Assembly (NCBI GenBank): GCA_965242565.1
Contig: OZ251457.1
Coordinates: 451,891 to 515,890, forward strand
Direction: 5' to 3'
Length of the DNA: 64,000 nt
Source: Dehalococcoidia bacterium
GTDB taxonomy: Bacteria; Chloroflexota; Dehalococcoidia; Bin125
How positions within the stretch are numbered: position 1 is the stretch's first letter; every line of letters starts with the position of its first letter. The translations under genes and the position numbers were made by a program. The notes under the pieces are model-generated. The model did not search any database and was not told the origin of the DNA. It was given only the letters and a program-made list of their open reading frames with translations. Of this stretch, positions 9,547 to 57,055 are shown piece after piece.

Positions 9547-9578
9547 CACGGCCGCTCCTCCCTCAAGATCGTCCGCGC

Positions 9579-10880: not shown

Positions 10881-12091
10881 GCGATCACTCCCGCCCGCCG
10901 CGCCTGCGCCGGCGTCCAGGGCGCGAGCTGCGGCGCGGTCAGCTCGTTGGTCGCTTCGCCGAGTTGCGGCGCAGGCGCGCGCGCCGCCCTCGGCGTCTCC
11001 GTCCACTCCGCCGCGAACTGCGCGTAGGACGCCGGACCGACCGCTGGATGCTCAAGCGTCTCGAAAAAACCGCGCAGCTGTTCCTGCTCGGAGACCATCA
11101 CCTCCGAGGGGCGCAGCACCGGCCCGGCCGGGGCGCTTTCGGCCTGCAACAGGCGGTAGACCTCGTCGCGCGTCCGGGCGCCCGCCCACTCGTCGATCGC
11201 TTCCTGCGCCGTATCCGCCATCTCCAGCCGATCGCGCAGCTTGCCCTCTTCGTCGTAGGCCCAGGCCGGATCGCCCATCGCGCTCAGCAGCCCGCGCCAC
11301 TGGTGCGGCTGCGGCGTCACTGTGATCACGTGCCCGTCGGCGCAGTCCATCCGCCCGCCGAACGAGGTGCGCCCGCTGCGCATAATCGGCGGCGGCCCGC
11401 CGTCGTTGGCCGCGATCGAGATGTCCACCCGATCGATCGTCATCATCGCCTCCGTCGCCGCCACATCCACGATCTGCCCCTCGCCCGTGCGATCGCGCGC
11501 GATCAACGCCGCCCAGACCGCCAGCGCGAGCGCCAGCCCCGCGTCCGCCTCGTGGACGCGCGCGCCGGCCATGATCGGCGAGCCGCCGTCCGCGCCCAGA
11601 TTGCGCCGCACGCCGGCCGCCGCGCCCGAGGCGTGCGCGCGCGTCAGCGCGCTCGACGGCCATTCGGCGGCGGGTCCGTCCAGCCCCCACGGCGTGAGCG
11701 CGGCGATGATCAGCCGCGGATGCGCCTCGCGCAGCGCCTCCAGTGCCAGCTCCGCCTCTTCCAGGCAGCTGGGCGGCCAATCGGTGACGAGCACATCCGC
11801 ATCGCGCAGCAGCGCCTGGAGGACTCGCTTCCCGGCGGCGGTGAGCAGATCGAGCGCCACGCTGCGCTTCGAGGTGTTGTAGTGCAGGAAGACGGTCGAA
11901 GTCTCGCGCCCCGGCCCGGCGCCGGCAAACGGCGCCATCCGACGCGCCGGATCCCCGCCCGGCGGCTCCACCTTGATCGTCTCCGCCCCCGCGTCGGCGA
12001 GCAGTTTGCCGGCAAACGGCGCAGCCACCTCGGTCGCCAGCTCGACTACGCGCAGCCCGTCCAGCAGCGTCGGTTTCGGAGCGTTCGTCAT
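10877..12091 (-). CDS. CoA-transferase family III (CaiB/BaiF) protein
   Basis: LDGLRVVELATEVAAPFAGKLLADAGAETIKVE signature. Confidence 0.8.
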   Translation of the reverse strand: MTNAPKPTLLDGLRVVELATEVAAPFAGKLLADAGAETIKVEPPGGDPARRMAPFAGAGPGRETSTVFLHYNTSKRSVALDLLTAAGKRVLQALLRDADVLVTDWPPSCLEEAELALEALREAHPRLIIAALTPWGLDGPAAEWPSSALTRAHASGAAAGVRRNLGADGGSPIMAGARVHEADAGLALALAVWAALIARDRTGEGQIVDVAATEAMMTIDRVDISIAANDGGPPPIMRSGRTSFGGRMDCADGHVITVTPQPHQWRGLLSAMGDPAWAYDEEGKLRDRLEMADTAQEAIDEWAGARTRDEVYRLLQAESAPAGPVLRPSEVMVSEQEQLRGFFETLEHPAVGPASYAQFAAEWTETPRAARAPAPQLGEATNELTAPQLAPWTPAQARRAGVIA

Positions 12092-12195: not shown

Positions 12196-12702
12196 ATGGT
12201 GAGGATGAGGCAAATCGCCCATGAGTTGCTGAAGACAGTCGACGCGTCGGAGCTGCGCGCCGACCCGGCCGCGCTTGTGGCGCAGCTGGAGAGCTTCGAC
12301 GATCGGATCACGATCATGCGCAACGGCAAACCCGCTGTCACCCTCTGGGGCTACGAGCCGACCCCGATTCACAACTGGAAACAGAACGACGAAGGCGAAT
12401 GGGTGGAATACACCCACGACTGGCGGGAGAGTGCGTTCGGGCGCATCGTGCAGCTCGGCGATCTGGCGGCGAAGTTCGACGCGCTCGCCGATGATCTGGA
12501 GGCCAACGCCGGCGGTGCGCTGATCAAATCAGGCGACGAGCGGGTGGCGGAGTTGACGCCCTACCGGCCGTCATGGTTCGGACGTTCGCTCAGGAAGCAC
12601 CAGTTCCTCGACGAACACAACGAACGCATGGACGCTGATCTGGACGCTGATCTGGACGCTGAGCGGGAGGCAAGGGCTGCGGCGTCGGGAGATGGGAGTT
12701 GA
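12196..12702 (+). CDS. Phd/YefM-like antitoxin with a long C-terminal extension
   Basis: N-terminal ...RITIMRNGKPAVTLWGYE beta-strand signature of Phd/YefM; 4-nt overlap with the downstream PIN gene. Confidence 0.5.
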   Translation: MVRMRQIAHELLKTVDASELRADPAALVAQLESFDDRITIMRNGKPAVTLWGYEPTPIHNWKQNDEGEWVEYTHDWRESAFGRIVQLGDLAAKFDALADDLEANAGGALIKSGDERVAELTPYRPSWFGRSLRKHQFLDEHNERMDADLDADLDAEREARAAASGDGS

Positions 12703-13097
12703 TCCTCCTCGACACGCAGACACTGGGCTGGCACGACCAGGCCGACCGCCGCCTCGGTCCACGTACGCGGGCCATGATCGAGCGGCACTGGCGGCAGAGG
12801 GAAGTCGCTGTCTCCGCGCTCTCGTTCTGGGAAATCACGATGAACCGCGACGCCCGGGAATTCCGCCGAATCCCCGACATCCGAGTGTGGCGGAACGATC
12901 TGCTCAAAGACGGGCTGATCGAGATTCCTGTAGATGGTGAGATCGCGATCGCGGCGGGCCGGATCACTGGCATGCACGGCGATCCCGGCGATCGGATCAT
13001 CGTGGCGACCGCGTTTCGCGCCGAAACGCTGGTGACCTCCGACGAGCGGATTATGCGCTGGGGTGGACAGCTCGATCGCGTCTACGCCTACGACTGA
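12699..13097 (+). CDS. vapC: PIN-domain toxin (VapC-like)
   Basis: MILLDTQTL...FWEI...IIVATA...TSD PIN acidic-residue pattern. Confidence 0.75.
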   Translation: MILLDTQTLGWHDQADRRLGPRTRAMIERHWRQREVAVSALSFWEITMNRDAREFRRIPDIRVWRNDLLKDGLIEIPVDGEIAIAAGRITGMHGDPGDRIIVATAFRAETLVTSDERIMRWGGQLDRVYAYD

Positions 13098-13174
13098 GCG
13101 GCCGCCGACGCCCGCGCCCATCCTCCTAAAGGCCTGCCAGCTATTGGTACGCTGGCAACGGATCGGAGCCAACC

Positions 13175-13663
13175 ATGGTGATGGCGGAGGACACAGCCCT
13201 CGCAGGCTTGACGGTGCTGGACGCCACGGAACTGGCGACCCGCTGCCAGGAAATCGTGGATCAGGCTGTGCGCAGCGAGGACCGGCTCGTGCTCACCGGC
13301 GACGGCCGCCCCATCGCCTACCTGGAGCGCTACGAACCGCCGCCGCGGCCGTTCTACGTGCGCCCGTCGCCTGAGGGCGGCGGCGCATCCGAGCGCGTCT
13401 ACCGCGAGGTCGTTGAGACCATCCATCGGTCCGTCAAGGTGGCGGAGTTGCAAGCGCAATCGCCCGACCTGGTCGAGCAGGCCGCCGCCAACGACTGGCG
13501 GGTGTTGATCTGGAACCGCAACGGTCCCGACGCGATGCTCATCCGCTACGCCCGGCGCGGCCGTCAGACCTCGCCTGTCACCGCGGTCAACGACATTGAC
13601 TGGGATGTCGGCGAAGTGTGGAACGCCACCCTCGACGGTCCGACGGCGGGCGAGTTGCTGTGA
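13175..13663 (+). CDS. Phd/YefM-like antitoxin (extended, 162 aa)
   Basis: LTVLDATELATRCQEIVDQAVRSEDRLVLTGDGRPIAYLERYE matches the Phd/YefM fold pattern; stop overlaps the GTG of the next PIN gene. Confidence 0.55.
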   Translation: MVMAEDTALAGLTVLDATELATRCQEIVDQAVRSEDRLVLTGDGRPIAYLERYEPPPRPFYVRPSPEGGGASERVYREVVETIHRSVKVAELQAQSPDLVEQAAANDWRVLIWNRNGPDAMLIRYARRGRQTSPVTAVNDIDWDVGEVWNATLDGPTAGELL

Positions 13664-14058
13664 TTCTGTCCGACACGCAGACGCTCTACTGGTGGCGCGA
13701 GGATCGCGGGCGTCTTGGTACGAACGCGCTCGCGGTGCTTGATGCGGCGTGGGATGCACGCAACCTGGCGGCCTCTGCAATCTCATTCTGGGAAATCGGG
13801 ATGCTCGAGTCGAAGGGGCGGCTGTCGCTTCCTGTCAACGCCGACCAATGGCGGCTGGACCTGCTCAACGAAGGGCTTGCGGAGATACCCGTCGATGGCG
13901 GAATCGGCCTCCGCGCGGCCTACCTCGCCAACTTCCATGGCGACCCTGCGGATCGCATCATCGTCGCGACCGCCCTCAACGACCATCAACTCCTGACCAC
14001 AGATCGCGAAATCCTGGATTGGGATGGCCCGCTTCAGCGCATCGACGCTCGGCGATAG
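13660..14058 (+). CDS. vapC: PIN-domain toxin (VapC-like), GTG start
   Basis: VILSDTQTLYWW...FWEIGM...IIVATAL...TTD. Confidence 0.7.
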   Translation: MILSDTQTLYWWREDRGRLGTNALAVLDAAWDARNLAASAISFWEIGMLESKGRLSLPVNADQWRLDLLNEGLAEIPVDGGIGLRAAYLANFHGDPADRIIVATALNDHQLLTTDREILDWDGPLQRIDARR

Positions 14059-14106
14059 CCGCTGCCATGGAAAGCTCGGTACGCTGACGGCGGATCGGAG
14101 CCGAGC

Positions 14107-14607
14107 ATGGTGATGGCGGAGGACACAGCCCTCGAAGGTTTGACGGTGGTGGACGCCGCGGAATTGGCGACCCGCTGCCAGGAAATCGTGGATCAGGCCG
14201 TGCGCAGCGAGGACCGGCTCGTGCTCACCGGCGACGGCCGCCCCATCGCCTACCTGGAGCGCTACGAACCGCCGCCGCGGCCCTTCTACGTGCGCCCGTC
14301 GCCTGAAGGCGGCGGCGCATCCGAGCGCGTCTACCGCGAGGTCGTCGAGACCATCCACCGGTCCGTCAAGGTGGCGGAGCTGCAAGCGCAATCGCCCGAC
14401 CTGGTCGAGCAGGCCGCCGCCAACGACTGGCGGGTGCTGATCTGGAACCGCAACGGCCCCGACGCGATGCTCATCCGCTACTTCTGGGACGGGATGCATC
14501 GCAACTCCGGGATCGACAACGGCGACCTCGTCACGGCGGTCCGCGAGCTGCGCGACGAGATGGCCGCGGAAGCCGAGCGGTCAATGAACCGAAGGTTCCC
14601 CCCATGA
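14107..14607 (+). CDS. Phd/YefM-like antitoxin. Residues 1-125 are nearly identical to the 13175..13663 paralog; the C-terminus is unrelated
   Basis: Direct comparison of the two translations: only three substitutions in the first 125 aa, then complete divergence after ...DAMLIRY. Confidence 0.55.
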   Translation: MVMAEDTALEGLTVVDAAELATRCQEIVDQAVRSEDRLVLTGDGRPIAYLERYEPPPRPFYVRPSPEGGGASERVYREVVETIHRSVKVAELQAQSPDLVEQAAANDWRVLIWNRNGPDAMLIRYFWDGMHRNSGIDNGDLVTAVRELRDEMAAEAERSMNRRFPP

Positions 14608-43485: not shown

Positions 43486-43561
43486 GGGCCGGTAGCTCAG
43501 GGGTCAGAGCAGGCGGCTCATAACCGCTCGGTCGCTGGTTCGAATCCAGCCCGGCCCACCA
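43486..43561 (+). tRNA. tRNA-Met (anticodon CAT); elongator-type acceptor stem (G1-C72). A lysidine tRNA-Ile cannot be excluded
   Basis: Cloverleaf read by hand: GGGCCGG acceptor, GCTC/GAGC D-arm, anticodon loop CTCATAA, GCTGG-TTCGAAT-CCAGC T-arm, CCGGCCC-A-CCA 3' end; coordinates +/-2. Confidence 0.8.
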
Positions 43562-43582: not shown

Positions 43583-46500
43583 TCAGGCCGCCGACAGCCA
43601 CAACCCCGTCAGCGCCTCCGCCTGCTCGAGCACCGTGTCCGTCGCCCGCTCCTGCTTGTCGGGCGGGTAGCCGTGCTTGCGCAGCACCCGCTTCACCGCC
43701 GTCCGCAGCTTCGCCCGCACCGCCTCCCGATGCGCCCAGTCCAGCGACGCCGAGCCGCGCACCATCTCGACCAACTCCCGCGCGATGCCCCGCAGCTTCT
43801 CGTCGCCCAACACCTCCACCGCGCTCTCGTTGTCCGCCAGCGCGTCGTAGAACGCCAGCTCATCGTCCCTCAGACCGAGCCGCTCGCCCCGCCCCTCGGC
43901 CTCTCGCAGCTCCCGCGCCAGATCGATCAGCTCTTCGATCACCTGCGCCGCCTCCACCGCCCGATTCCGGTAGCGCAGCAGCGAACGATCCAGCAGCTCC
44001 GAGAAGTTGCGCGCCTCCACCACATTCTTCCTGCGCCGCGCCGCGATCTCCCCCTTCAGCAGCTTCTGCAGCAACTCCACCGCCAGATGACGCTGCGGCA
44101 TCCCCCGCACCTCCGCCAGAAACTCATCGGACAGAATCGAGGTGTCCGGCTTGCCCAGCCCCGCCGCGGCGAAGATGTCCAGCACCCCCTGCGACGCGAC
44201 CGCGTTCGAGACCAGCCGCCGCAGCGCGTAATCCAGCTCCTGATCGGCCTGCCCCTCCGCCGGCGAGCGCTTCGACAACGCCGTCCGCACCGCCTGGAAG
44301 AACGCCGCATCGTCGCGGATGCGCCGCGTCTCCTCGTGCGGCGCCGCCAGCGCGAACGCCTGCGTCAACTCCCGCACCGCCGCCAGACACCGCTCCTTCC
44401 CGTCCTCCTGCGCCAAAATGTGCTCCTGCGCCGCCGGCAGCAGCGCCAGACGCTGCTCCGCCGTCCCCCGCCGCCAGAGCGAGCGATCAAACCCGTGAAA
44501 CAGCCCCTCGCAAACCTCGTACTTCTCGACCAGCGCCGCCACCGCATCCTCGTGGTTCAATGTCGTCCGACCCGTCCCGCCGCTCTCCGTGTAGACCGCC
44601 AGCGCCTGCTTCAGGTCGTGCGCCAGACCCAAATAGTCCACCACCCGCCCGCCGTCCTTGTCCTTGAACACCCGATTGACCCGCGCGATCGCCTGCATCA
44701 GGCCGTGCCCCCGCATCGGCTTGTCCACGTACATCGTATGCAGACTCGGCGCGTCGAAACCAGTCAGCCACATATCGCGCACCAGCACGATCCGCAGCCC
44801 GTCTTCCGGATCGCGGAAGCGGTTCGCCAGCGCCTCGCGGCCCGCCTTGTTGCGAATATGCCGCTGCCACTCCGTCGGATCCGACGCCGAGCCCGTCATC
44901 ACCACCTTGATCTCGCCCGCCTCATCGTCCTCGCTGTGCCACTGTGGACGCAACCGCGTCAACTCCGCGTACAGCTCCACGCAGATCCGCCGACTCATGC
45001 AGACCACCATCGCCTTGCCCGACAGCGCCTCCAGCCGCTGCTCGAAATGCTCCACGATGTCCTCCGCAATCTGCCGCACCCGCGGCTTCGCCCCCACCAC
45101 CGCCTCCAGCTGCGACCAGCGCGTCTTCAGCTGCTCACGTTCCGCCGACTCCTCGCCCTCCGTGATCTGCTCGAAATTCGCATCCAGCAGCTCCCGATCG
45201 CCGCGAATGCCCAGCTCCACCAGCCGACTCTCGTAATAGATCGGCACCGTCGCCTTGTCCTCCACCGCCCGCTGAATGTCGTACACGCTGATGTAATCGC
45301 CGAACACCGCCCGCGTATCAGCGTCCCGCTTCTCGATCGGCGTTCCCGTGAAACCCACAAACGACGCCCGCGGCAGCGCATCCCGCATATGCCGCGCGAA
45401 CCCGTCGATGAAATCGTACTGACTGCGGTGCGCCTCGTCCGCTATCACCACGATGTTCCGACGCTCCGACAGCGCCGGCTGCTCCCCGCCCCCGCGCTCC
45501 GGAAAGAACTTCTGAATCGTCGTGAAAATCACCCCGCCCGACGCCCGCCGCAGCCGCGACCGCAAATCCGCCCGACTCTCCGCCTGCTCCGGCCGCTGCC
45601 CCAGCACATCCGCGCAGCGCGAAAACGTCGTGAACAACTGGCTGTCCAAATCGTTGCGGTCCGTCAGCACCACAATCGTCGGATTGCCCATCCGCGCATC
45701 ACGCGCTATCGCCCCAGCGTAAAACGCCATCGTCAGACTCTTCCCCGAACCCTGCGTGTGCCAGACCACCCCGATCCGACGATCCCCCCGCTCCCCGCCC
45801 GCGCGGCCCGTCTCGTAACGCCCGCCCGGCTCCGCGAAGCCCGCCTCCTCCGAAGCCCGCACCGTCTGCTCCACCGCGTGCCGCACCGCGTGAAACTGGT
45901 GATACCCAGCCAACTTCTTCGCCGTCGCCCCGCCGTCGTCCTCGAACACGATGAAATCGCGCACCAGCGCCAACAGACGCGACGGCTCGCACACCCCCTC
46001 CAGCAGCACCTGCAACTCCGGCATATGCGGATCATGCAGCCGCTCGCCCGAAATCGTCCGCCACGGCTTGAACCACTCCATCCCCGCCGTCAGCGTCCCT
46101 AGCCGCGCCCACACCCCGTCCGACACGATCAGTAACTCATTCATCGCAAACAGCGACGGCAACTCCGCCTGGTACGTCTGCAACTGCCGCCACGCCGCCC
46201 ACACGTCCGCCTGCTCGTCGGCCGGATTCTTCAGCTCGATCACCCCCAGCGGCAGGCCGTTCACAAACAGCGCGATATCGAGCCGCCGCAAGTGCTTCTG
46301 CTCCGACACCGTCAACTGGTTCACCGCCAACAGGTTATTCGCCTCCGCCTCCTCGAAATCGAGCGCCCGCGCCTGCGCCCCGCGCACCCGCCCCTCATCG
46401 TCGCGGTACTCCACCGGCACCCCGTCCACCAGCATCCGGTGAAACGACCGGTTGCGCGCCTCCGTCGTCGCCCCCGCCGGCCGCGTCAGCCTGGCCAACG

Positions 46501-46705
46501 CATCCTCCAGCGCCGAGTCCGGCAGCTCCGGGTTCAACTCCGCCAGCGCATCCCGCAGCCGCTGCTCCAACACCACATCCGAAAAATCCCCGCGCTCCGC
46601 CGTCCCCTCCGGCCCAAGCTCCGGCCCGTGCGCCGCCTCCCAGCCCAGACCGCGCAGCCAGCCCAGCGCCGCCGCCTCCACCGTCCCCTCATTGAACGCG
46701 CTCAC
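43583..46705 (-). CDS. hsdR: Type I restriction endonuclease subunit HsdR
   Basis: 1040 aa; helicase motifs ([10 protein letters not shown] Walker A, DEAH-like [10 protein letters not shown]); GTG start overlapping (GTGA) the stop of the upstream 140-aa gene. Confidence 0.9.
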
Positions 46706-47124
46706 GACCCGCCGCCAACCTGACAGGTGTAGGAGATGTCCGCCACCCGCACCGCGCCCAGCGCCACATTGAGAATCAGGAACGGTAGTTGGCCGATCTC
46801 CGTCGTCCGCGCGACCAGCTCCACCTCATCGCCTTCCAGCCGCAGCGAACGCCGCACATCGGCGATCAGCGACAACTGGTAGTCGGTGAGCTCGTCAAAG
46901 CACCGCGCGCGTCGCAGCCAGTCGTGCGCATCGCAGTAGTCGGTCACGACATACTCCCCGTCGCGCTCCAGAATCCAGACTTGCACCTCGTCGCAATCCG
47001 GGTAGAGCAGCGACGTGTTCACGCCGACTGCCCCGTCCGGCGCGGGGAAGAACTCGAACAGATCCGACGCCTCCAGGCGCATCTCCGTGCTCAGCGCATC
47101 CAGCAGGGCCGGTTTGGTCACCAT
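46702..47124 (-). CDS. Hypothetical 140-aa protein 'P1' (cassette gene, copy 1 of 3); no recognised domain
   Basis: [12 protein letters not shown]...[17 protein letters not shown]; paralogs at 47687..48109 and 48669..49091. Confidence 0.55.
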
Positions 47125-47600
47125 CTCGTGCCCCCTTCCGCTCCGTGCAGAATACCCCGATGCGTGAGGTTGATCTCTGCACAGAACTGCCGCCAGACCT
47201 CGCTTGGATCGCCGGCATCGGCTGTGATGTCCGGCGGGACATAAACCCACTGGTCGCCGAACTGCTCCGTCCAGCGGTGCTTGTGGACGCCGCGCGGGCA
47301 GTCGCAACGAAGTTTGGACACGCCAGTGCTGTCGCAAAGCGGGCCGTGGTGGACGACGCCGGGGCCCAGACAGACCCCGACCACTCGGCCTGCGCTCGGG
47401 TGGATTACGTGATAGCCCAGCGCCGCCGAAGCCGGCTTCCGCCAGCCGTACACCCGCAAGCCCCGATCAGGCGTCGAGCCGACGGCCGCCGTGAACCGCT
47501 GCGACCCGCGGTAGCCCGGTGCGAGCGTCCAGCGGATGTCGCCGACGATCTCCTTCGTCGGGTCGGCCAGCATTTCCGCGAACTCTTGCTCAGTGACCAT
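47118..47600 (-). CDS. Hypothetical 160-aa Cys/His-rich protein 'Q1' (cassette gene, copy 1)
   Basis: M(V/I)TEQEFAE(M/L)LADPTKEIVGDIRW ... HH.P.C ... RC.CPRG.HKHRWTEQF; its end overlaps P1's start codon. Confidence 0.5.
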   Translation of the reverse strand: MVTEQEFAEMLADPTKEIVGDIRWTLAPGYRGSQRFTAAVGSTPDRGLRVYGWRKPASAALGYHVIHPSAGRVVGVCLGPGVVHHGPLCDSTGVSKLRCDCPRGVHKHRWTEQFGDQWVYVPPDITADAGDPSEVWRQFCAEINLTHRGILHGAEGGTRW

Positions 47601-47609
47601 TGGGCAAGC

Positions 47610-47690
47610 TCAGCGCGCCGTCTCCCAGCCCAGACCGCGCAGCCGGCCCAGCGCCGCCTCCTCCACCGTCCCCTCATTGAACGCGCTCAC
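47610..47690 (-). pseudogene. hsdR 5'-end fragment (26 codons: [26 protein letters not shown]), copy 2
   Basis: About 90% identical to the first 24 codons of hsdR at 46705; GTGA overlap with P2, exactly as at the P1-hsdR junction. Confidence 0.6.
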
Positions 47691-48109
47691 AACCCGCCGC
47701 CAACCTGACAGGTGTAGGAGATGTCCGCGACGCGGACGGCGGCGAGCGCCACATCGAGGATCGCGTAGGGAATGTTCTCCACTTCCTGCACGCGCGCGAC
47801 CAGCTCCACGCCCTCGCCCTCCAGCGTGAGCGAGCGGCGCACCCCGTCGATCAGCGCCAGCTGCTCTTCAGTCAGCTCGTGGAAGCAACGCGCGCGGCGC
47901 AGCCAGTCGTGGCCCGCGCCGCGATCTGTCACGACGTACTCGCCGCCGCGCTCCGACACCCAGACCTGCACCTCTTCGCGATCCGGATAGAGCAGCCTGG
48001 CATTGACGCCCACATCGTCCGGCGGGACCGGGAAGAACTCGAAGAGATCCGTGAGCTCGACGCTCCGCGAGCTGGTCAACTCGTCGATCAGGGCGGGCTT
48101 GGTCGCCAT
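47687..48109 (-). CDS. Hypothetical 140-aa protein 'P2' (cassette copy 2)
   Basis: MATKPALIDELTS...[17 protein letters not shown]. Confidence 0.55.
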   Translation of the reverse strand: MATKPALIDELTSSRSVELTDLFEFFPVPPDDVGVNARLLYPDREEVQVWVSERGGEYVVTDRGAGHDWLRRARCFHELTEEQLALIDGVRRSLTLEGEGVELVARVQEVENIPYAILDVALAAVRVADISYTCQVGGGL

Positions 48110-48582
48110 GGTTCGTTCCCCTCCGGTTCCACCAGAATACCCGAGTGGGAGACATCGATCTCAGCGCAGAACTGCCGCCAGACGGCCGTCGAGTCGGTCA
48201 CATCAGCCGTGATGTCCGACGGCGCGTAAATCCACTGGTCCGCAAACTGCTCGGTCCAGCGATGCTTGTGCGTCCCGCGCGGGCAGGCGCAATGCCGCTT
48301 CCCCGCGCGGGTGTCGCGGCAGTCTGGCAGATGGTGGACCTCAATGCCCAGACAGAGCCCGACAATCCGCCCGACGCCCTCGTAGATGACCGAGTAGGAG
48401 AGCCGCGCAAGACGCGGGTTTCGCCACGCTTCAACCCGCAGCGGCCAATCGGACTGCGAGCGCACGTGCGCAGTGAACTCGTGCGCGCCGGGATGAGATA
48501 TGCTGGCCGCCCACCGAATGTCGCCGACGATCTCCTTCGTCGGGTCGGCCAGCAGCTCGGCGAACTCTTGCTCAGTGATCAT
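48088..48582 (-). CDS. Hypothetical 164-aa Cys/His-rich protein 'Q2' (cassette copy 2)
   Basis: About 55% identical to Q1 with the same Cys/His spacing; 22-nt overlap with P2. Confidence 0.5.
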   Translation of the reverse strand: MITEQEFAELLADPTKEIVGDIRWAASISHPGAHEFTAHVRSQSDWPLRVEAWRNPRLARLSYSVIYEGVGRIVGLCLGIEVHHLPDCRDTRAGKRHCACPRGTHKHRWTEQFADQWIYAPSDITADVTDSTAVWRQFCAEIDVSHSGILVEPEGNEPWRPSPP

Positions 48583-48591
48583 TGGGCAAGC

Positions 48592-48672
48592 TCAGCGCGC
48601 CGTCTCCCAGCCCAGACTCTCCAGCCAGCCCAGCGCCGCCGCCTCCACCGTCCCCTCATTGAACGCGCTCAC
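48592..48672 (-). pseudogene. hsdR 5'-end fragment ([26 protein letters not shown]), copy 3
   Basis: Same junction structure as copy 2. Confidence 0.6.
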
Positions 48673-49091
48673 GACCCGCCGCCAACCTGACAGGTGTAGG
48701 AGATGTCCGCCACCCGCACCGCGCCCAGCGCCACATCGAGGATCGCCGTCCCCACATCGTCGACATCCGTCACCCGTGCGACCAGCTCGACGCCTTCGCC
48801 TTCCAGCACCAGCGAGCGTCGCACCTCGCCGATCAGCGCCATCTGCCGCTCGCCCAGCTCCTGAAAGCACCGCGCCTTGCACAGCCAGAGCCAGGCGTCG
48901 CCGCCGTCTGTCACCACGTACCCGCTGTCCTGCTCCGTCACCCAAACCTGCACCTCATCGCGATCCGGGTAGAGCAGCGATGTGTTCACGCCGACCGACC
49001 CGTCCGGCGCCGGGAAGAACTCGAACAGGTCCGAAGCCTCCAGCCGCACCCCCGCAGCCAGCGCATCCAGCAGAGCCGGCTTGGTCGCCAT
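48669..49091 (-). CDS. Hypothetical 140-aa protein 'P3' (cassette copy 3); only a 50-nt remnant of its Q3 partner survives, overlapped by the rloC-like 3' end
   Basis: [14 protein letters not shown]...[17 protein letters not shown]; upstream remnant ...[19 protein letters not shown] matches the Q1/Q2 C-termini. Confidence 0.55.
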   Translation of the reverse strand: MATKPALLDALAAGVRLEASDLFEFFPAPDGSVGVNTSLLYPDRDEVQVWVTEQDSGYVVTDGGDAWLWLCKARCFQELGERQMALIGEVRRSLVLEGEGVELVARVTDVDDVGTAILDVALGAVRVADISYTCQVGGGS

Positions 49092-49139
49092 CTCGCGCCC
49101 CTTCCGGTTCCCACAGAATACCCCGATGCGTCACGTTGA

Positions 49140-51524
49140 TCACCTCGCAGAGCTGCCATCAGGCGGTGATCGGCTGATCTGCGTCTGTTGCGGCTTGGCG
49201 AACTCGAGAACGCGTTCAACGAAGGGCCTCAACTCGCCGTCCGAGGGCCTCTCGTCCGCGTGCTGCTGGTTTGAGTCATGATGGAACCGATGAGCGTACG
49301 TCATGAGCTCATCGAGCTCGTTGATCTGTTGCGCCGACAGGATCGGACTTCCGTGTTTAGCGCGCCTCTCGCACTCCTTAATGAACCGACCAAACCTTTC
49401 TCCCGGGCCGAAGTCGCCCGGGCAAGTGACGCGGAGGTAGTGTTCGAGGTAGGGGCGCAACGACTTGGCGACTGCCACCAAATCATCGTCGTCTGTCTCC
49501 AGGTACCGCGTCAAACGCAGATACGTTCGATCGTGATCTGTGATGAGGTCGTTATTGACATCCCACGGCCTCAGAGAGGAACCGTCGCTGCTCCGCGCGA
49601 TCTTGATTGCCGACCGCGATTCCCGGTAAGGGCGACCAGCAGTCTCCCAGATGTCGCACAGGAACCTCTTGTTGTGAGACAGTACGATCACCTGCCCGAC
49701 ACGGTCGAGAAGACCAGCGATCTCCGACACCGTCACCGAGAATCGGCTGGTGTCGAGACTGGAGATTGGGTCATCCATCACGACCGTCAGGTCGCTAGGA
49801 TTGGGATCAAGCTCGATCGCCACCAAGAACATCGAGAACGCCAACGCGTTGCGGTCACCTGCGCTCAGAGTATTGCCGAAGGAATACTCACCCGCAGGCA
49901 CGTCCTGGTTCGTGATGGGCACGAGCTTTCCGTTGATTTCGAGTGCGTAAGTTGTCGTCGGACCGCCCGTCTGGCGCGGCTTGAGGGACTTTACTCGAAA
50001 GCCGGCACCAAACCGACTCAGGTGGTGGTTCAGCCTCTCCTCGTATTGCGGAAAGATCTGATTCCGGAAAGCAGCGAGAGCTTGACTGGCGCGTTTTTGT
50101 TCGTCATTCGTTCGCGATTTGGCTGCGCTTTCGTTTAGGTAAGCGACGGCCAGGTCGACGATGTCCGGAGAGTAGCGCGCCTGAACTGCAGTTAGCCGCG
50201 CTATCTCGTCTTTGATGGTGCCGGCGTTCGTGGACGCTGCTTGGTCGAGGAAAGCCGCGATCGTGGTGTTGGCCCGCTCGATTGTGCGGTTTGCGGAGGT
50301 GACGCCCGCTCGAAGCTCGTCATAGCGAGCAAGCGCGACGCGAGCCTCGTCATCGATGGTGAGGGTGTCGAGTGGTGCAGCCTGTTTCGTGCGAAAGTGG
50401 CGGATGATCGCGGTGTAGGCCTCGTCCCACGCGCCAGCAATCGCTGGAGCGTCGACTTCGATCAGATCGACCTCACACACTTCACGCCAAAACCGCATGC
50501 GCTTGGTGGTTTCGGTCACTGTGCGCTCGAACGCGGTCTGAGCCTTTCGGCCATGTGTTTCATCGATGTGGGTTCGTTCGTCTTGGATCGATGATTTCAG
50601 GTCGCGATAGGCGGCGCTGAAGTAGGAACGGTAGTGCGCGAGCATTACAGACGAACCAATAGCCTGCAAGCAGAAGGGGCACGTCGCTACATCGTCAGCC
50701 TGCGCCGACTGTTGTAGGTACGTTGTGCCTTGGTCTAGCCACCGCTCGCCGTCCTCGCCAAGTTCATCCGCGTGGTCAGCAATTTGTTTTGCGGCATCGG
50801 CGTCGAGTTCCGATATGTCGCGACGCAAAACACGCTCTATCTCGTTGAGATCGAAAGTGGCGGTCGAGAGTCGCCCGGGCGTTGGTGCTTTGCTGATTTC
50901 GTCAGCGCGTTCTGCCGCTGCCTGTAGCTGGCGTTGATGGCGAAGTGCATCGTCGACGTTGAGCTCGTCGGTGAGGTTGCAGAAGCGTTCGATCGCGTCG
51001 CGGCCAGCGAGCGACGACCGAAGGTCGGCAGGAACGGCGTCACGGATCTGTTCCTCCAGCCGGCGTAGCTCTGCGTTGTGCTCTTTCAGCCGGTCGTTCG
51101 TTCGCTGGACGGTTCGATTCAGGCTGACGCCTTGCTCGCCCAGGATGAGTTCGTGGAGAGCTTGCCTATGGGCGTTGTGGACCTCAAGGCCAGAGCAGAC
51201 ACTTTCAGCGACAAACTGTTCATCGAAGACCTTGAGCGACGTCAACGGCGGAATTTTCCAAGCACCATCGGCGAATACTGCGCCGCCCTCTTCGCCCCGC
51301 AGCGTGATCACGACCACCGGCGGGTCACTCACGTCGATCCGTTGGCGCTCGACGATCGCTGTTGCATTGCCCTTGGCCAACGACCGAAGGACCTCGGAGA
51401 GAGTGGTCTTACCACGGCTGTTATCGCCGTAGATCACGGTCAGCCGTTTCAGGGGAAGCGAGGCACCGTCGGTCACAGCCTTGAATTGGCCGATGTTGCC
51501 GAGGAAATCAATTGTCTCTAGCAT
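49140..51524 (-). CDS. AAA_13-type ABC ATPase with a coiled-coil CxxC zinc hook; RloC-like (putative anticodon nuclease family)
   Basis: Walker [10 protein letters not shown] near the N-terminus; long helical middle containing [12 protein letters not shown] (CxxC); signature-like [11 protein letters not shown]; Walker [12 protein letters not shown]; 794 aa; embedded in a type I R-M locus; low GC. Confidence 0.5.
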
Positions 51525-52828
51525 TGTGAGACTCTCCCTGTGGACTCTTGGATCTCTCCGGCAGTCGCCAGCAGTTGTCGCGACAGCGAGTTGCGGACGA
51601 CACTGATCGCCGCCGTATCGGTCCCTGCCTTCGTCGCCCGGGCGATCAAAGGGCCGACCTCAGCCGCGAAGCGAGAAGAGGCTGGGGTGGGCGGAACGGC
51701 GACGACATAAGACGCGACCGCAGCCGGCGGCACGCGCTGCCGCCCGCTCGTGCCGGTCATGCTCTGGATGGCGAACTCGCGGAACGGCTCGCTCCGAGCG
51801 AGGCAGTAGGCGAACTCCGGCGGCAGCGGCGGCTTGGGTCGCAGCACGATGTACTCCGTTGAACCCCAGCCTACCTGACCATCCTCCAGAAAGTCCACAT
51901 AGGCCGTCTTCCCGTTCTCCAGGCACGGCGTGATCCGCGCCACGAGCGTGTCGCCGTTGATGAAGCGCGTTCCCGAGCCGAACGGCCGCTCCGTCACCGC
52001 GTGCGGCACGTGCCCGTGCGTGGGCATGTCCGCCATCGCCAGGTGCGGCGCGGCCTCGCCCTTCTTGAGCGACCGCCTCGGATTGACCTCCACCACATCC
52101 CCAAGCGCGGCCACGCGCCAGCCGGCGGGGATGGGGCCGAGCGCCGACGCCTCCAGGCGCTCGGGGAACGCCTCGTAGAGCTGCGCGGGCAGCCCCGGCA
52201 GCGACTCCCCCGAGCGCCAGCGGCCCTCCTGCTTCGCCCGCACCGGCTCGAAATCCACAAACCACGAGCGAAACAGCGCCCGCGCCATCTCCTCCAGCGT
52301 CCCCGCCATCCGACGGTTCAACTCAATCTTGTCATCCAGACACCCCAACACCCCCGCAATCCGCCGCTGCTCCCCCATCGGCGGCAAGCGCAGTTTGATA
52401 CTTTTGAGCGCCGTGCCGGACAGCTCGCGGAACGTGGAACCCGACGAGTGCCGCTCCAGTTCTTCGGTGTTCACCGAAAGCCAGTAGTACAGGTATTCAC
52501 CGAATGCACCGTCGCGAGGAATCAGCGACCGGAAGCCCTGATTGGTCGCGATCGGGTTCTTGGCGATCGCGACGTATCCAACGGGCGCTCGCGTTGAGAG
52601 CAGTACGGCGCCGGCGGGCAAAAGCTTGGCCGAACAGCTGTCGAGTCCCTGTTGCGTGAGATTCCGCTCCCCGCGAGCAATGTAGCGATCATGCGGCCCC
52701 GAAAGGTCTTTGGGCGTCACCCACGGTATGTCGCCGCCGAAGTTGTCAGGGTCTTTCGTTGACGGCGTAGAGCCGCCCACGATGTCGGCGATCTCGCCGA
52801 TGGTCACTTCAGTCCAGCTAGCCGTCAT
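51518..52828 (-). CDS. hsdS: Type I R-M specificity subunit HsdS (two target-recognition domains)
   Basis: 436 aa; two TRD halves separated by the central conserved helix ([24 protein letters not shown]...); C-terminal conserved helix. Confidence 0.8.
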
Positions 52829-53109
52829 TTGAACTCCTCGTGATCGGGCGTCCGCATGAGCGCGAGGACATCGGCTCGCTCATACTCCACATCGCGCTTC
52901 GCAGCGACCGAGCCGTGGCGTCCGAAGAACCAGTCGCCGCCGGTGTCGAGCTCGACGTTGAGCACGCGAATCCGCTCAGCCGCCACATCGTCGAAGCCGT
53001 CCTCGTACCCGTTGACCACGACGCGCATCCCGCTCGGATACTGCGAGAGGTGCTCGATCAGTTCGCCCACCGTCATCATGGCGCATCCCTCGGATGAGGC
53101 GCTCCCCAT
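52825..53109 (-). CDS. Small hypothetical protein (about 84-94 aa) between hsdM and hsdS
   Basis: Start trimmed to MGSASS / MMTVGEL so it does not overlap the upstream ORF; ATGA overlap with the hsdS start. Confidence 0.35.
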
Positions 53110-53185
53110 CGCAGCGTCGCTTGGAACGACTTTACCACGAGACACAGAATTGCGGTCGTGGACCTCCTCGTTCGGACCGACGCAG

Positions 53186-54160
53186 TCATGCGAACTTGAC
53201 CCAAGGTCCTGGGAAGCCTTGCTTCGGAAAGTCCATCGGTGGTTCCTCGCCGCGGGCCTTGCCTTCGAGATCATCGATGGCAGCTAGGTAGCTCCCTCTA
53301 CCCGACATGCAGAGCCAAGGTTCTGGGCCGATCACGTCGCCGTTCGCTGCAACGTACATCTGAGACAGGAGCCTCCTGAGCTCGCCGAACGCTTGCTCGC
53401 TCCGTTGCCAGCCTGTAGGCCGTGCGGACTGTAGACGAAACCCGTTGTCGTACACGACGCTGACGGTCGCCCAGAGCTCGTCCGTCTCTTCATGGACCAC
53501 TGGCTCCGTGCGGAGAGAGACGATCTTTGGAGCTGGATGGCGAGTGCGCATCTGGTCGGGAATGCCAAGGTCGGTCCAGCGGGCTATGCGATAACCAGAG
53601 GCTGTTTCTGTGGGGAAGATGCCCATGCAGCCGATCTGGTGTGCGAGGTCGAGGACATGCCGTGTGCTGAAGATCATCTGCTCCCCAGGTTCGAACCAGC
53701 GCAGAACTTCGCACTTGCCGCAATGCTCTTTCGTGGCCTGTCCGTGGGCATGGATGAGGTCGTTGCGGATGTGACGCAGGTCGTTCATCACGTTGATCTG
53801 CGGAGGGATGCCTACGGGACCGACAGCGGCTTTGAACTGCGGCCGGAATCCATGTTCCCAGCGGCTGTAGACCTCGACGATCCATGCGCGGTAGGCGAAC
53901 TGTTCCACTGCACCATCCCGCTCGAGATCCTCCAGCGGATGACGGTCAAGGACATCTGGTTGACAGTCCAGGTAAGACGGCTTCAGCGGGACGCGCATAC
54001 CGGCGTTTAGCGTTTCCGGAGTCATCGTGCTGTACCACTGCCGCTGTTCGTCGCGCACAAACTCGAGGCCGTGGAGAGTTGCGAAGAGATGACGGGTCGC
54101 TCTTGTGATGTCGTAGTAGAGCATCCCTATCTCCTCTCTCATTCGCTGCTCGTCAGCCAC
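53186..54160 (-). CDS. Hypothetical 324-aa protein with a HEPN-like Rx4HxH motif (RHIRNDLIHAHG)
   Basis: Motif read from the translation; lies between hsdM and hsdS, where Abi/HEPN genes are commonly embedded; low GC. Confidence 0.4.
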   Translation of the reverse strand: MADEQRMREEIGMLYYDITRATRHLFATLHGLEFVRDEQRQWYSTMTPETLNAGMRVPLKPSYLDCQPDVLDRHPLEDLERDGAVEQFAYRAWIVEVYSRWEHGFRPQFKAAVGPVGIPPQINVMNDLRHIRNDLIHAHGQATKEHCGKCEVLRWFEPGEQMIFSTRHVLDLAHQIGCMGIFPTETASGYRIARWTDLGIPDQMRTRHPAPKIVSLRTEPVVHEETDELWATVSVVYDNGFRLQSARPTGWQRSEQAFGELRRLLSQMYVAANGDVIGPEPWLCMSGRGSYLAAIDDLEGKARGEEPPMDFPKQGFPGPWVKFA

Positions 54161-54317: not shown

Positions 54318-55874
54318 TCACTTGCCACCCTCCGCGGGGAAGCCGAGCGACTGCAGATTGGCCTCAATCTGCGCATCGAGCCGCGCCGCCTCAGCCTGCT
54401 GCCCGCGCCACTGCGCCGCCAGCCGCCCCATCTTCTCCGCAAACGGCTCGCCGTCGTCCGCCTGCGGCTCCACGCCCACGTAGCGCCCCGGCGTGAGCAC
54501 GTAATCCTGCGCGCGCACCTCGTCGAGCGACGCGCTCTTGCAGAAACCGGGCGCGTCCTCATACGCGCCGGCGCCCTCCTCCCCTCGCCATGCGTGGTAG
54601 GTATCCGCGATGCGGCGGACATCCTCGTCGCTCAGATCGCGGTGCGTACGATCCAGCATGTGCCCCAGCTTGCGCGCGTCGATGAACAGTATCTCGCCGC
54701 GCCGGTCGCGCATCCCGCCGCCGTGCCGCCGTCGCGCCAGAAACCACAGGCAGGCCGGAATTTGCGTGGTATAGAAGAGCTGCCCCGGCAGCGCCACCAT
54801 ACAGTCGACCAGATCGTTCTCGATCAACCGTCTGCGGATCTCCCCTTCGGCTGATTGCGCCGTCGACATCGAGCCGTTGGCCAGCACGAAACCGGCCACG
54901 CCGCGCGGCGAGAGGTGATGCACCATATGCTGCACCCAGGCGAAGTTGGCGTTCTTGGCCGGCGGCGTCCCCCAGCGCCAGCGCTTGTCCGCGCTCAGCT
55001 GCGCCGCGCCCCAGTCCATATTGAACGGCGGGTTGGCCAGGATGAAATCCGCCCGCAGGTCCGGATGCCGATCGTTGAAGAACGTATCGCCCTGCGCGAT
55101 GTTGCCGTCGATCCCGCGAATCGCCAGATTGATCTTCGCCAGCCGCCAGGTCGTGTAGTTCGACTCCTGGCCGTAGATCGAGATATCGTTCTGCGCGTCG
55201 CTCGGCGACTTGCCGCCGTCGCCGTTGCCCGTCGCGTGCGCGCGGATGAACTCCACCGACTGCACGAACATCCCGCCCGATCCGCAGCACGGATCGTACA
55301 CCCGCCCCTTGTATGGTTCGAGCATCTCGACCAGCAGCCGCACCACGCTGCGCGGCGTGTAAAACTCGCCGCCCCGCTTGCCCTCCGCGCTCGCAAACTG
55401 CGCGAGGAAGTACTCGTACACGCGCCCCAGCACATCGGTCGAGCGCGCGTCCTCGGTGCCGACCGCGATGTTGCTGATCAGGTCGATCAGCTGCCCCAGC
55501 CGCCGCTTGTCCAGCGCCTCCCGCGCGTAGTCTTTGGGCAGCACGTCCTTGAGCGACGCATTGTCGCGCTCGATGGCCAGCATCGCCTGGTCGACGGTCG
55601 TTCCGATCGTCGTCTGCCGCGCCGCCCGCTGCAACACCCGCCAGCGCGCCTCTTCCGGCACCCAGAACACGTGCTCCCCGCGATACTCGTCCGGGTCTTC
55701 CGGATCGGCCCACTCTTCGTGTTCCAGCTCGGCGCGGCGCTCCTCGAAGGCGTCCGAGATGTACTTGAGGAAGATCAGGCCGAGCACGACGTGCTTGTAC
55801 TCCGCGGCGTCCATACTGCCGCGCAGCTCGTTGGCGGCCGCCCACAGATCGGCTTCGTGCTGATTCGCGCTCAC
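54318..55874 (-). CDS. hsdM: Type I R-M DNA methyltransferase subunit HsdM
   Basis: HsdM N-terminal domain ([34 protein letters not shown]); SAM motif [10 protein letters not shown]; catalytic NPPFN; GTG start overlaps (GTGA) the stop of the upstream aminotransferase. Confidence 0.85.
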
Positions 55875-57055
55875 GACGACACCTCCCGCAGCGCCGCCGC
55901 AAACCCCGCCGCAGCCCCCTCCAGCTCCCACTGTTCCACGCAGTAGGAAATCCGGAAATGCCCCGGCATCCCGAAACCGCGCCCCGGCACCACCAGCACC
56001 CCGTGCTCCTGAAGCGCCTCCACCATCCGCAGCTCATCCTCCACCGGCGACTGCGGGAACATGTAGAACGCCCCCTCCGGCTTGCGCACGCTGTAGCCCG
56101 CGTCGGTCAGCACGCCGTACAGATAGTCGCGCTTCTTCTGGTACTGCCCCACATCGATCGTCGCCTCCTGGAGATTGCGCACGAGGTGCTGCATGATCGC
56201 CGGCGCGTTGACGAAGCCCAGCACGCGGTTACAGAAGATGAAGGCGTCCATCAACTCCGCGCCGCCCTCGTACTCCGGATGCAGCGCCAGATAGCCGATC
56301 CGGTCGCCCGCCAGCCCCAGGTCCTTGGCGTGCGACGTCACCGTAATCGTCCGCCGGTACGCCTGCTGCGGAAACGGGTACTGCTGATCGTCGTAGATGA
56401 TCTTGCGGTACGGCTCGTCGCTGACCAGAAAGATGTCCGTACCGAACCGCTCGCACGCGCGATCCAGCAGCTCCGCCAGCGAGTCGATCACCGAGCGCGG
56501 GTAGATCGCGCCCGACGGATTGTTGGGCGAGTTCAGGATCACCAGCCGCGTGCGCTCGCTCAACCTCTCCTCCAGCTCCGCCAGATCCGGCGTGAAGTCC
56601 TCGCCGCAGCTGATCACCACCGGCTGCGCGTCGCGCCCCAGAATGTAGAACATGTACTCGCCGAAAAACGGCGTGAGGATCACGATCTCGTCGCCCGGGT
56701 TGCAGAGCGCGCGCACGATCACGTTCAGCGCCGCCGCCGCGCCCACCGTCATCACGATGTTGTCCGCGCGATAGCCCAGCCCGGTTTCCACCGAAAGCGC
56801 GTCGGCCACGGCCTGGCGCGTGTCGGGATAGCCCGCGTTGGGCATATAGCGGTGCGCGCCCGGCTGCGGCGTCTCCGCGAAGCGGCGCAGCTCCTCGAAA
56901 AATTCCGGCGGCGGCTCGGCCACCGGATTGCCCAGCGAGAGGTCGAACACGTTCTCCGCCCCGCGCTCCGCTCTCAGCGCGATGCCCAGCTCGAACATCC
57001 GCCGAATCCACGAGCTGTCCTCCATGTGCCGTTGTACGTCCGTTGCGATGGTCAT
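55871..57055 (-). CDS. Class I/II PLP-dependent aminotransferase
   Basis: 394 aa; [11 protein letters not shown] motif; PLP-lysine context [16 protein letters not shown]. Confidence 0.8.

Follow-up and report, generated by a model that had tools for sequence, protein, structure and literature searches.

The window analysed here is a 64,000-nucleotide stretch of contig OZ251457.1 (Dehalococcoidia bacterium, assembly GCA_965242565.1). Between positions 49162 and 46625 (window coordinates are used throughout), its minus strand carries an array of repeated units directly upstream of hsdR, at the 3' end of a type I restriction-modification (R-M) operon. Each unit contains, in this order, a gene designated Q (160–164 aa), a gene designated P (140 aa) and hsdR codons 1–26 with a stop codon, hereafter a stub, and the intact hsdR stands at the end. 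The array consists of three diverged copies of the candidate defence module PDC-M24. Comparisons with sister strains and with more distant loci suggest that segments ending in hsdR probably entered by recombination anchored in hsdR, which would have left a stub behind, and that homologous recombination multiplied and shuffled the units.

Architecture and maintenance of the Q-P array

A repeat search of the window identified three head-to-tail copies with spacings of 985 and 982 nt. The features of the array, all on the minus strand, are as follows.

43583..46705, minus strand: hsdR, intact, 1040 aa; Pfam HSDR_N, SWI2_SNF2, ResIII, T1R_D3-like and T1RH-like_C across the full length
46628..46779, minus strand: conserved block B1, last 75 nt of P1 and first 78 nt of hsdR, from the alignment
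46702..47124, minus strand: P1, 140 aa, the hsdR-adjacent copy, DUF1828-type; type III secretion (T3S) chaperone/YbjN-like fold
47118..47600, minus strand: Q1, 160 aa, DUF6978-type; PADLOC PDC-M24A, E 1.7e-34
47526..47764, minus strand: conserved block B2, P2 3' end, stub2, J1 and first 75 nt of Q1; 86–95% identity
47601..47609, minus strand: spacer of junction J1, GCTTGCCCA, from the stub2 stop to the Q1 ATG; recurs upstream of Q2
47610..47690, minus strand: stub2, hsdR codons 1–26 and TGA; HsdR N-terminus profile, E 2e-9
47687..48109, minus strand: P2, 140 aa, cassette type 2; PADLOC PDC-M24B, E 3.5e-16
48088..48582, minus strand: Q2, 164 aa, cassette type 2; PADLOC PDC-M24A, E 2.2e-39; Pfam DUF6978, 30.8 bits
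48508..48746, minus strand: conserved block B3, P3 3' end, stub3, J1 and first 75 nt of Q2, from the alignment
48592..48672, minus strand: stub3, hsdR codons 1–26 and TGA, followed by J1 at 48583–48591
48669..49091, minus strand: P3, 140 aa, cassette type 3, the most hsdR-distal copy; PADLOC PDC-M24B, E 7.2e-16
49092..49162, minus strand: Q3 remnant, approximately the last 20 codons of a Q gene, from the repeat family and the alignment

In the chain Q, P, stub, Q, P and hsdR, all neighbours overlap or stand 9 nt apart. The Q stop overlaps the start of P, which follows it on the same strand, in every unit (ATGGTGA for Q1 and P1), and the P stop overlaps the GTG of the following gene in all three units (GTGA), which is the GTG of a stub for P2 and P3 and that of hsdR for P1. 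The stub TGA and the next Q ATG are separated by the 9-nt spacer GCTTGCCCA. The last 16 residues of P are the same in the three units. The three-unit architecture before an intact hsdR, the GTGA overlap and the invariant P C-terminus had all been described in the original prediction, and the repeat search and the alignment upheld them, with small details corrected. One correction concerns Q3: the remnant exists, as had been claimed, and it is only ~20 codons long, overlaps the 3' end of the neighbouring AAA_13 gene and supplies the last codons and the stop of that gene. Q1 is identical to the database protein P0012.

A motif scan, which is weak at 68% GC, found no sigma-70-type promoter or terminator consensus on the coding strand of the array. 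In addition, Q2 lacks the usual TGG-TGA ending (48088–48120, minus strand), and the same base change converts codon 2 of P2 from Val to Ala; as a result of this stop-losing change, Q2 extends five codons further into P2 than its orthologue in the sister-strain contig L005. Just past the break point of the stubs, a Gly/Pro-rich linker of hsdR (46600–46625, minus strand) includes a 9-mer repeated in direct orientation, GGGCCGGAG ... GGGCCGGAG. Sister strains have an indel relative to one another in this linker, so the site may be fragile or tolerant.

Q and P correspond to PDC-M24, which pairs a DUF6978 protein with a DUF1828/DUF1829 protein and belongs to 145 PDC systems, phage defence candidates chosen by their embedding in BREX, DISARM and type I R-M loci (bioRxiv 10.1101/2024.01.29.577857). 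The matches of Q1 and Q2 to PDC-M24A cover profile positions 1–143 of 151. Against Pfam DUF6978 (cut-off, 29.6 bits), Q1 scores 23.6 bits and Q2 lies above the cut-off as listed, and both align over their full length with homologues annotated PF22398. P1–P3 match PDC-M24B at E ~1e-15 over profile positions ~12–126 of 256 only, ending there. Their scores against Pfam DUF1828 (cut-off, 22 bits) are 20.7–21.7 bits; close homologues carry PF08861, and full-length P relatives reach 35–59 bits. The wider relatives of P are 256–263 aa long, and all those examined have a conserved C-terminal domain of ~120 aa, which is missing from the P proteins of the window and which resembles DUF1829 weakly (2 of 25 members match; best E, 3e-4).

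Thus, as in the catalogued system, the Q and P of the window match the A and B models in the same order, adjacent to each other and within a type I R-M operon. They differ from it in that P is the N-terminal half only, without the C-terminal domain, and in that three copies of the module stand in tandem, separated by hsdR stubs. The original prediction knew of no described system with this architecture; the gene pair itself is already catalogued as a PADLOC candidate, whereas our literature searches yielded no description of the tandem array, of a truncated P overlapping hsdR, or of recurrent hsdR 5' stubs.

Nucleotide identity between the units is uneven. In Q, it is 91% over the first 75 nt and 60–69% over the remainder; in P, it is 70–76% over the first 345 nt and 86–95% over the last 75 nt; and the stubs are 90–92% identical. 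Consequently, a block of ~240 bp, which comprises the P 3' end, the stub and the Q 5' end, is 86–95% identical between the units, as against 60–76% for the interiors, and this conservation extends to synonymous sites and to the stubs. At the protein level, Q1 and Q2 are 60% identical, and P1, P2 and P3 are 67–72% identical. The N-terminus of Q and the C-terminus of P are conserved as protein across the whole family. We propose that block B2 is a substrate for homologous recombination.

The ratios of nonsynonymous to synonymous divergence (dN/dS) for orthologous Q and P copies, compared among the three sister strains and related arrays, were mostly 0.04–0.39, with three comparisons near 1, each on no more than eight differences. 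P3, which is 96% identical to L005 P3, gave a dN/dS of ~1.1 on eight differences, and may be under relaxed selection. Between the paralogues, dN/dS was 0.34–0.68 at a dS of 0.32–0.76, and for hsdR between strains, dN/dS was ~0.1 at a dS of ~0.09. These values indicate that the internal Q-P copies are maintained genes and not debris, and P and Q thus carry the coding signature that the original prediction had presupposed.

Junctions, gene conversion and cassette exchange in related loci

Related contigs were sorted by chromosomal site and content into three groups. Group I comprises the window, L005 and L008, whose housekeeping proteins are ~98% identical and which contain three, three and two units, respectively, and an intact R-M system in an island at site A, between an aminotransferase gene and tRNA-Met/DUF192. 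L005 and L008 are independent long-read contigs of sister strains with the same unit order as the window. All three pairs are complete in L005; the array of L008 comprises two units and has lost half of Q2. Q3 is intact in L005 (152 aa, P0005), reduced to ~20 codons in the window and gone in L008. The genes embedded between hsdM and the array differ strain by strain, and as these genes were replaced, the distal end of the array was lost to differing extents. In the window, the AAA_13 gene ends in the Q3 remnant, suggesting that a recent gene replacement cut into the array; a tblastn search of the window with the AAA_13 protein of L005 gave nothing at E<=1e-10, and the AAA_13 gene of the window is thus very different from that of L005.

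The copies of the same unit are much alike across these contigs. Q1 is 96–97% identical to the Q1 of L005 and L008. P2 is 96–97% identical to the P2 of L005 and L008, 93% to the P of L010 and 88% to Pb of L009, and Q2 is 99% identical to L005 Q2, 96% to L010 Q and 93% to L009 Qb.

Group II (L003, L004, L006 and L007), from a related genus, occupies the same chromosomal site, and its aminotransferase is 76% identical to that of the window. Here hsdR is a mini-gene in which 8–38 N-terminal codons are fused to ~60 C-terminal codons, and hsdS survives in fragments; further defence genes (ThsB-TIR, 8xMP and DUF6731) are found alongside, and one Q-P pair is kept at the tRNA-proximal end. The mini-gene is in frame and lies just before tRNA-Met (~10910–11190 in L003, L004 and L007; ~10900–11100 in L006), and in L003 and L004 it breaks directly after YGPE, near the J1 and L033 break points. 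L003 and L004 also contain, at 9493–9990, a frameshifted extra Q (P0019) directly upstream of the intact Q, with neither a P nor a stub between them, so this duplication differs in kind from that of the window.

Group III (L002, L009 and L010) has two, three and one units, respectively, at site B, between UDG/hsdS and RNase J, where there is no hsdR. In L009, the last P and RNase J are separated by 600 nt of short tandem repeats (CCCGAACAAAGCTGAACAAA-like; ~11400–12050), and the reading frame of this P runs into them, giving a protein of 154 aa.

The internal junctions of the window (two), L005 (two), L008 (one) and L009 (two) all end GCGCGCTGAGCYTGCCCA-ATG and are identical or nearly so, sharing the sequence GCGCGCTGAGCYTGCCCAATG. 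The two stubs of L009 are ~65% alike in their 5' parts and identical in their 3' parts. Since one J1 sequence is present at all internal junctions, the three units do not represent three independent insertions, contrary to the option of a cassette applied three times in the original prediction, and the junctions would therefore derive from a single J1 event that was later propagated. A J1-like sequence upstream of Q in L007 and L004 had been considered as proof of an ancestral array; it was set aside, as it may be the native leader of Q.

As judged from the distribution of variants, the conserved block bears clear signs of gene conversion. The 3' end of P2 in the window keeps the type-2 allele, like that of L010, and the P2 genes of L005 and L008 carry the P1/P3 version. 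A four-base variant in stub codons 19–21 (Leu-Glu-Ser versus Leu-Arg-Gly) is located in different blocks in different strains, and the ATG/GTG start variant is likewise found in different blocks among the three strains.

Cassette types recur across the arrays and the two sites. The type 2 cassette is at position 2 in the window, L005 and L008, is the sole cassette in L010 and is the middle cassette in L009; type 4 is common to L009 and L002; and a type with the tail ADISYTFRSE is common to L009, L002, L003 and L004. L009 has one type-2 cassette more than L002. Between site A of the window and site B of L010, the type-2 cassettes show a dS of 0.08–0.14, which is similar to the hsdR dS of ~0.09. 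In addition, L006 pairs an L003-like Q with an L007-like P, and P0087 is a clean recombinant of two P alleles. The P of L010 has a type-2 body with the site-B tail and downstream sequence, which is what is expected from a deletion between neighbouring P 3' ends in an L009-like array.

Stubs with other junctions were found elsewhere, as follows, among them stubs immediately ahead of Q in three unrelated lineages, each with a junction of its own.

J2, L002: stub to codon ~19, followed by the 3'-terminal 20 nt of an AAA_13 gene and by Q
J3, L020 and L044/L045: hsdR residues ~1–62 fused to the C-terminal tail of hsdS, then Q
J4, L044: 11-codon stub after P, then a frameshifted darG, then intact hsdR
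J5, L033 (47% GC), 5806–5895: stub of codons 1–30, ~110 nt, a single Q-P pair, then hsdR
J6, L057, 5890–5925: ~12 codons directly after the hsdS stop, then Q-P-hsdR; a different HsdR family

The AAA_13 tail of J2 also precedes the first Q in L005 and L010. The stub of L033 is 93% identical to the 5' end of the resident intact hsdR, and L033 and L057 belong to lineages unrelated to that of the window. Since these two loci have a stub and only one Q-P pair, simple tandem duplication cannot explain them. The position at which hsdR is interrupted varies by lineage (codons ~11, 12, 19, 26, 30 and 62). L044 contains a second, longer stub upstream of Q, and its darG (4081–5392) matches PADLOC DarG (E 7e-67 and 5e-20) and the Pfam Macro domain; no darT was identified at this locus.

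For the wider family, 80 metagenome loci were sampled, all of them chosen for having Q. Wherever the sequence sufficed, Q is single and a full-length P follows it, and no locus has a second copy. Of the 32 loci whose flank was long enough, at least 8 have an hsdR-like gene no further than 900 nt downstream of P, and of the 65 with sufficient sequence upstream, 4 have a stub ahead of Q; roughly 3 of 10 independent Q-P-hsdR loci carry a stub. L001 and L013 have Q, a P of 259 aa and hsdR with a GTGA or ATGA overlap. Thus, Q-P pairs do occur beside hsdR elsewhere, as the original prediction would have them, with the same 4-nt overlap in L001 and L013. Conversely, in L011 and L014 Q-P stands alone among housekeeping genes. 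In L013, the Q-P-hsdR operon is flanked by a relaxase-like gene (Replic_Relax) and a large serine recombinase (1–1019 and 12537–14243), and the whole R-M island probably rides on a mobile element.

Origin of the array

In the account that we favour, and hold to be probable on balance, Q-P directly upstream of hsdR would be the old arrangement, because distant relatives have Q, full-length P and hsdR with the same 4-nt overlap. A donor segment, extending from a few bases upstream of Q to inside hsdR, would have been joined after codon ~26 of a resident hsdR, with a homologous right crossover in hsdR and an illegitimate left joint. Homology-facilitated illegitimate recombination would suffice for this, and unequal sister exchange would give the same product, namely, a stub of the hsdR 5' end and one more Q-P pair, together with an hsdR that is still intact. 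In general form, the order would be recipient DNA up to 11–62 codons into hsdR, donor leader, cargo and complete hsdR. The J1 event would have created the ~240-bp direct repeat. Homologous recombination across this repeat would then have added and removed units and moved cassette types between arrays, including those at the second site, and gene conversion would have kept the repeat uniform, with divergence retained or arising in the interiors of Q and P. The distal end of the array would have eroded upon replacement of the upstream embedded genes, in the window by AAA_13. The gene conversion signs and the cassette distribution described above, including the same cassette type at a second chromosomal site, are consistent with this sequence of events.

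Homology-facilitated illegitimate recombination combines one homologous anchor with one microhomology joint. It predicts the stub, the donor leader with Q-P and the hsdR 5' end, and the crossover into the recipient hsdR, and it also predicts variable joints and left borders, as seen at these loci. It differs from the present case in that it is known from naturally transformable bacteria, and the scars from which we read it here are also given by other routes.

In the original prediction, two options had been offered. The first was a cassette inserting into the 5' end of hsdR and supplying a replacement, in the manner of tRNA-targeting islands. The outcome of such an insertion fits L057, L002, L033 and L020/L044, whereas an integrase-driven mechanism finds no support: the precomputed annotation of L005 and L008 contains no Pfam recombinase or integrase, and the same flanking genes are present in the window by protein similarity; none was found in the six window open reading frames (ORFs) scanned by Pfam, a scan that reached ~58300; no second, att-like copy of the tRNA-Met 3' end is present in the window; and both the break points and the left borders are variable. 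The second option, an array shuffled by recombination, fits the window best.

Several observations weigh against the favoured account. The recombination is read from the sequences of only ~10 related assemblies, and insertion by one illegitimate and one homologous joint, unequal sister exchange and deletion between adjacent islands would all leave the same product. J1, L033 and the hsdR deletion of L003/L004 break within a few codons of one another, at the motif HGP(E/S)(L/I)(G/A)P, and such clustering is not predicted by a purely random illegitimate joint. Cassettes that appear to have moved between sites might instead have moved from strain to strain. The stubs, which are always ORFs placed for translational coupling, could have a role of their own; 26 stop-free codons are not unlikely at 68% GC, so the stub ORFs are no evidence either way. 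Finally, any functional reading would be based on predicted fold, genomic context and selection, and the predicted structure of Q has no informative relative.

A plain ancient duplication or triplication that diverged in place, with its ends kept by selection and translational coupling and with neither exchange nor horizontal input, would account for the single shared junction, the stable unit order in three strains and the conservation of the Q N-terminus and the P C-terminus as protein across the family, and the paralogue dS of ~0.3–0.8 is compatible with an old duplication. We nevertheless consider it unlikely, as the block is conserved at synonymous sites and in the stubs, conversion tracts are clustered, the blocks of sister strains carry shuffled variants, a type-2 cassette is found at another chromosomal site with strain-level divergence only, recombinant alleles and discordant Q/P pairings exist, and L033 and L057 have a stub with one Q-P pair, which duplication cannot produce. 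That the array is an assembly artefact or decaying pseudogene debris is extremely improbable. Repeats of ~1 kb can be mis-assembled, and the dN/dS of P3 is compatible with decay; however, the units are only 60–76% identical internally and thus cannot collapse or inflate in assembly, the array recurs in the independent long-read contigs L005 and L008, all ORFs are intact, and orthologue dN/dS is mostly low. The units are therefore not exact recent tandem duplicates, an outcome that had been named as fatal to the original prediction.

Two further explanations give the array an activity of its own. Q-P could be a homing-like selfish module, of which one product, presumably Q, which has conserved histidines, cuts or nicks hsdR near codon 30; repair would copy in Q-P with the hsdR 5' end, the left end would be sealed by end joining to give a stub ending at the cut site, the host would keep its restriction enzyme, and repeated invasions by diverged variants together with homologous shuffling would build the array. 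Speaking for such a module are the stubs that stand immediately before Q at five or more independent junction types, in lineages from 47% to 68% GC, as well as their presence at ~3 of 10 independent Q-P-hsdR loci, the coincidence of three break points at HsdR codons ~26–33 (J1, L033 and the L003/L004 deletion) and the resemblance of L033 to a clean single Q-P insertion with a 91-nt duplication of the hsdR start. However, other break points are at codons ~11, 12, 19 and 62 and left borders range from 9 nt to more than 100 nt, one stub precedes darG and not Q-P, Q has neither a nuclease or recombinase fold nor a sequence relative of that kind and P has an adaptor fold, an hsdR-like gene went undetected in the 900 nt beyond P at 24 of the 32 metagenome loci with sufficient flank, and Q-P stands among housekeeping genes in L011 and L014. 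Moreover, all loci were selected by the presence of Q, which biases the association with stubs. We thus judge a homing activity to be quite improbable. Even less credible, and very unlikely in our estimate, is a programmed variation device comparable to hsdS shufflons or Rhs orphan switching, in which recombination between a stub and hsdR picks the hsdR-coupled pair. Direct repeats do flank the units, so that a distal pair would come to abut hsdR if the sequence from a stub to the hsdR 5' end were deleted, and Rhs orphan toxins are reported to be activated in such a manner (PMC3967940). Yet because the repeats are direct, the switch would be an irreversible loss; furthermore, no recombinase gene was found in or near the locus (L005/L008 annotation and scanned window ORFs), the array order is identical in three strains that differ by ~9% at synonymous sites, and all units appear to be co-translated anyway.

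Predicted function, related systems and surroundings

The predicted structure of Q (predicted local distance difference test score, 89.9) is mostly beta, and its best Foldseek match to the PDB has an E of 0.47; sequence and profile searches of the PDB with Q and with full-length P gave nothing. Residues K16, F36, R72, H83 and H105 of Q are invariant family-wide, whereas the CxC loop is confined to the clade of the window and absent from distant homologues. An HNH or zinc-ribbon nuclease, which the original prediction had raised for Q, is not supported, given the fold and sequence searches and the restriction of the CxC loop to this clade. For P, the fold resembles T3S class I chaperones and YbjN (DUF2170); it differs from them in that sequence identity is 5–14% and no secretion system is present in the context of P. 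The stub peptide had been considered as a ligand of P, and this was dropped, as the stubs of L033 and L057 are not preceded by P.

Q is probably a small beta-rich protein with a conserved histidine cluster, and P, as its modelled fold suggests, is probably a protein-binding adaptor. The pair is embedded in an R-M operon beside an ATPase of the PrrC/RloC class, is coupled to hsdR and persists after hsdR decay, and its diversification is concentrated in the interiors of the Q and P proteins. Tentatively, and with considerable doubt, Q-P may be an accessory pair of the sensor-effector or toxin-antitoxin-like kind, which monitors the type I enzyme or provides a backup for it; several diverged copies of the pair would widen recognition.

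The Q family is small, with 491 clusters among 1.84 billion representative proteins. NCBIfam has no family for Q or P, and PHROGs gave only weak matches (phrog_1960 for P, E 1.7e-5; phrog_2017 for Q, E 0.07). A tblastn search of plasmids gave no match to Q, and a scan of viral contigs gave no relative. A scan of species-representative genomes with a narrow alignment found one locus only, in a Chloroflexota metagenome-assembled genome, and the clade of the window is almost absent from this set.

The closest analogy to the array is that of the orphan cassette arrays of Rhs and contact-dependent inhibition (CDI) systems, as a mirror image. Downstream of rhs and cdiA genes, there are rows of orphan toxin-immunity cassettes, each bordered by a fragment of the main gene. 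In both cases, diverged two-gene cassettes stand in a row, each with a conserved fragment of the main gene; the fragments would give homology for cassette swap or deletion, and older cassettes would be pushed away from the main gene. The window array differs in that its cassettes are upstream of the main gene and the fragment is the 5' end of that gene, and in that its cassettes are genes in their own right and do not encode alternative ends of the main protein. The comparison concerns mechanism only: the fragment rule holds as a mirror image, and Q-P would be at most a putative toxin-immunity pair.

The embedded PrrC, RloC and DarTG genes resemble Q-P in their location between hsdS and hsdR and in apparent co-transcription; in addition, the window operon includes an AAA_13 ATPase of the RloC/PrrC class, and the darG of L044 is placed behind an hsdR stub in the same manner. 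They differ in that none of the three is related in sequence to Q or P, and tandem multiplication or 5' stubs are not known to have been described for PrrC, RloC or DarTG, our literature searches having found none.

Many defence genes are embedded in type I R-M, BREX and DISARM operons, and to our knowledge, their entry and turnover there have so far not been explained. The hsdR 5' stubs can be read as datable scars of a segment splicing into the start of a resident hsdR with the enzyme left intact, and other R-M loci can be surveyed for the corresponding signature, a short second copy of the hsdR start that lies a few kilobases ahead of the gene. The findings thus offer a testable signature of embedding and a mechanism for it, and have revealed no new biochemical activity so far. 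PDC-M24 appears unusually close to HsdR, as seen in the translational coupling, the persistence after hsdR decay and the arrays of paralogues, and is a good candidate for experiments. Should stubs prove to accompany Q-P alone, the pair would be a self-inserting element of a new kind; were it a homing module, it would represent a new class of mobile module in which neither a nuclease nor a recombinase is recognisable, and this could be a general route for embedded defence genes into R-M operons.

The operon reads hsdM, two ORFs without a family, hsdS, AAA_13, three Q-P units and hsdR, so that the array forms its 3' end. With hsdM and hsdS in the locus and an hsdR that has nuclease, motor and C-terminal domains, the system is of type I. 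The hsdR GTG overlaps the P1 stop as described, and HsdR is 98% identical in amino acids to that of L005. The remaining features are as follows.

43486..43561, plus strand: tRNA-Met, the conserved right border of the variable island (ARAGORN and Rfam)
49140..51524, minus strand: AAA_13 ATPase, 794 aa, RloC/PrrC-like class; Pfam AAA_13, E 6.5e-44; PADLOC PDC-S06, E 1e-71
51518..52828, minus strand: hsdS; Pfam Methylase_S
54318..55931, minus strand: hsdM; Pfam HsdM_N and N6_Mtase

An Rfam search of the window found tRNA only. The hsdS gene product is 96% identical to that of L005 over the first ~260 aa only and divergent beyond, which looks like a swap of target-recognition domains between sister strains. 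The two ORFs between hsdM and hsdS (53186–54160, minus strand, 324 aa; 52825–53274, minus strand, 149 aa) have no Pfam or PADLOC match. At the same position, L005 and L008 have other genes (an 84-aa ORF; MNT-HepT and a weakly DUF3800/PDC-M04A-like gene), and the intervening ORFs may be uncharacterised embedded defence genes.

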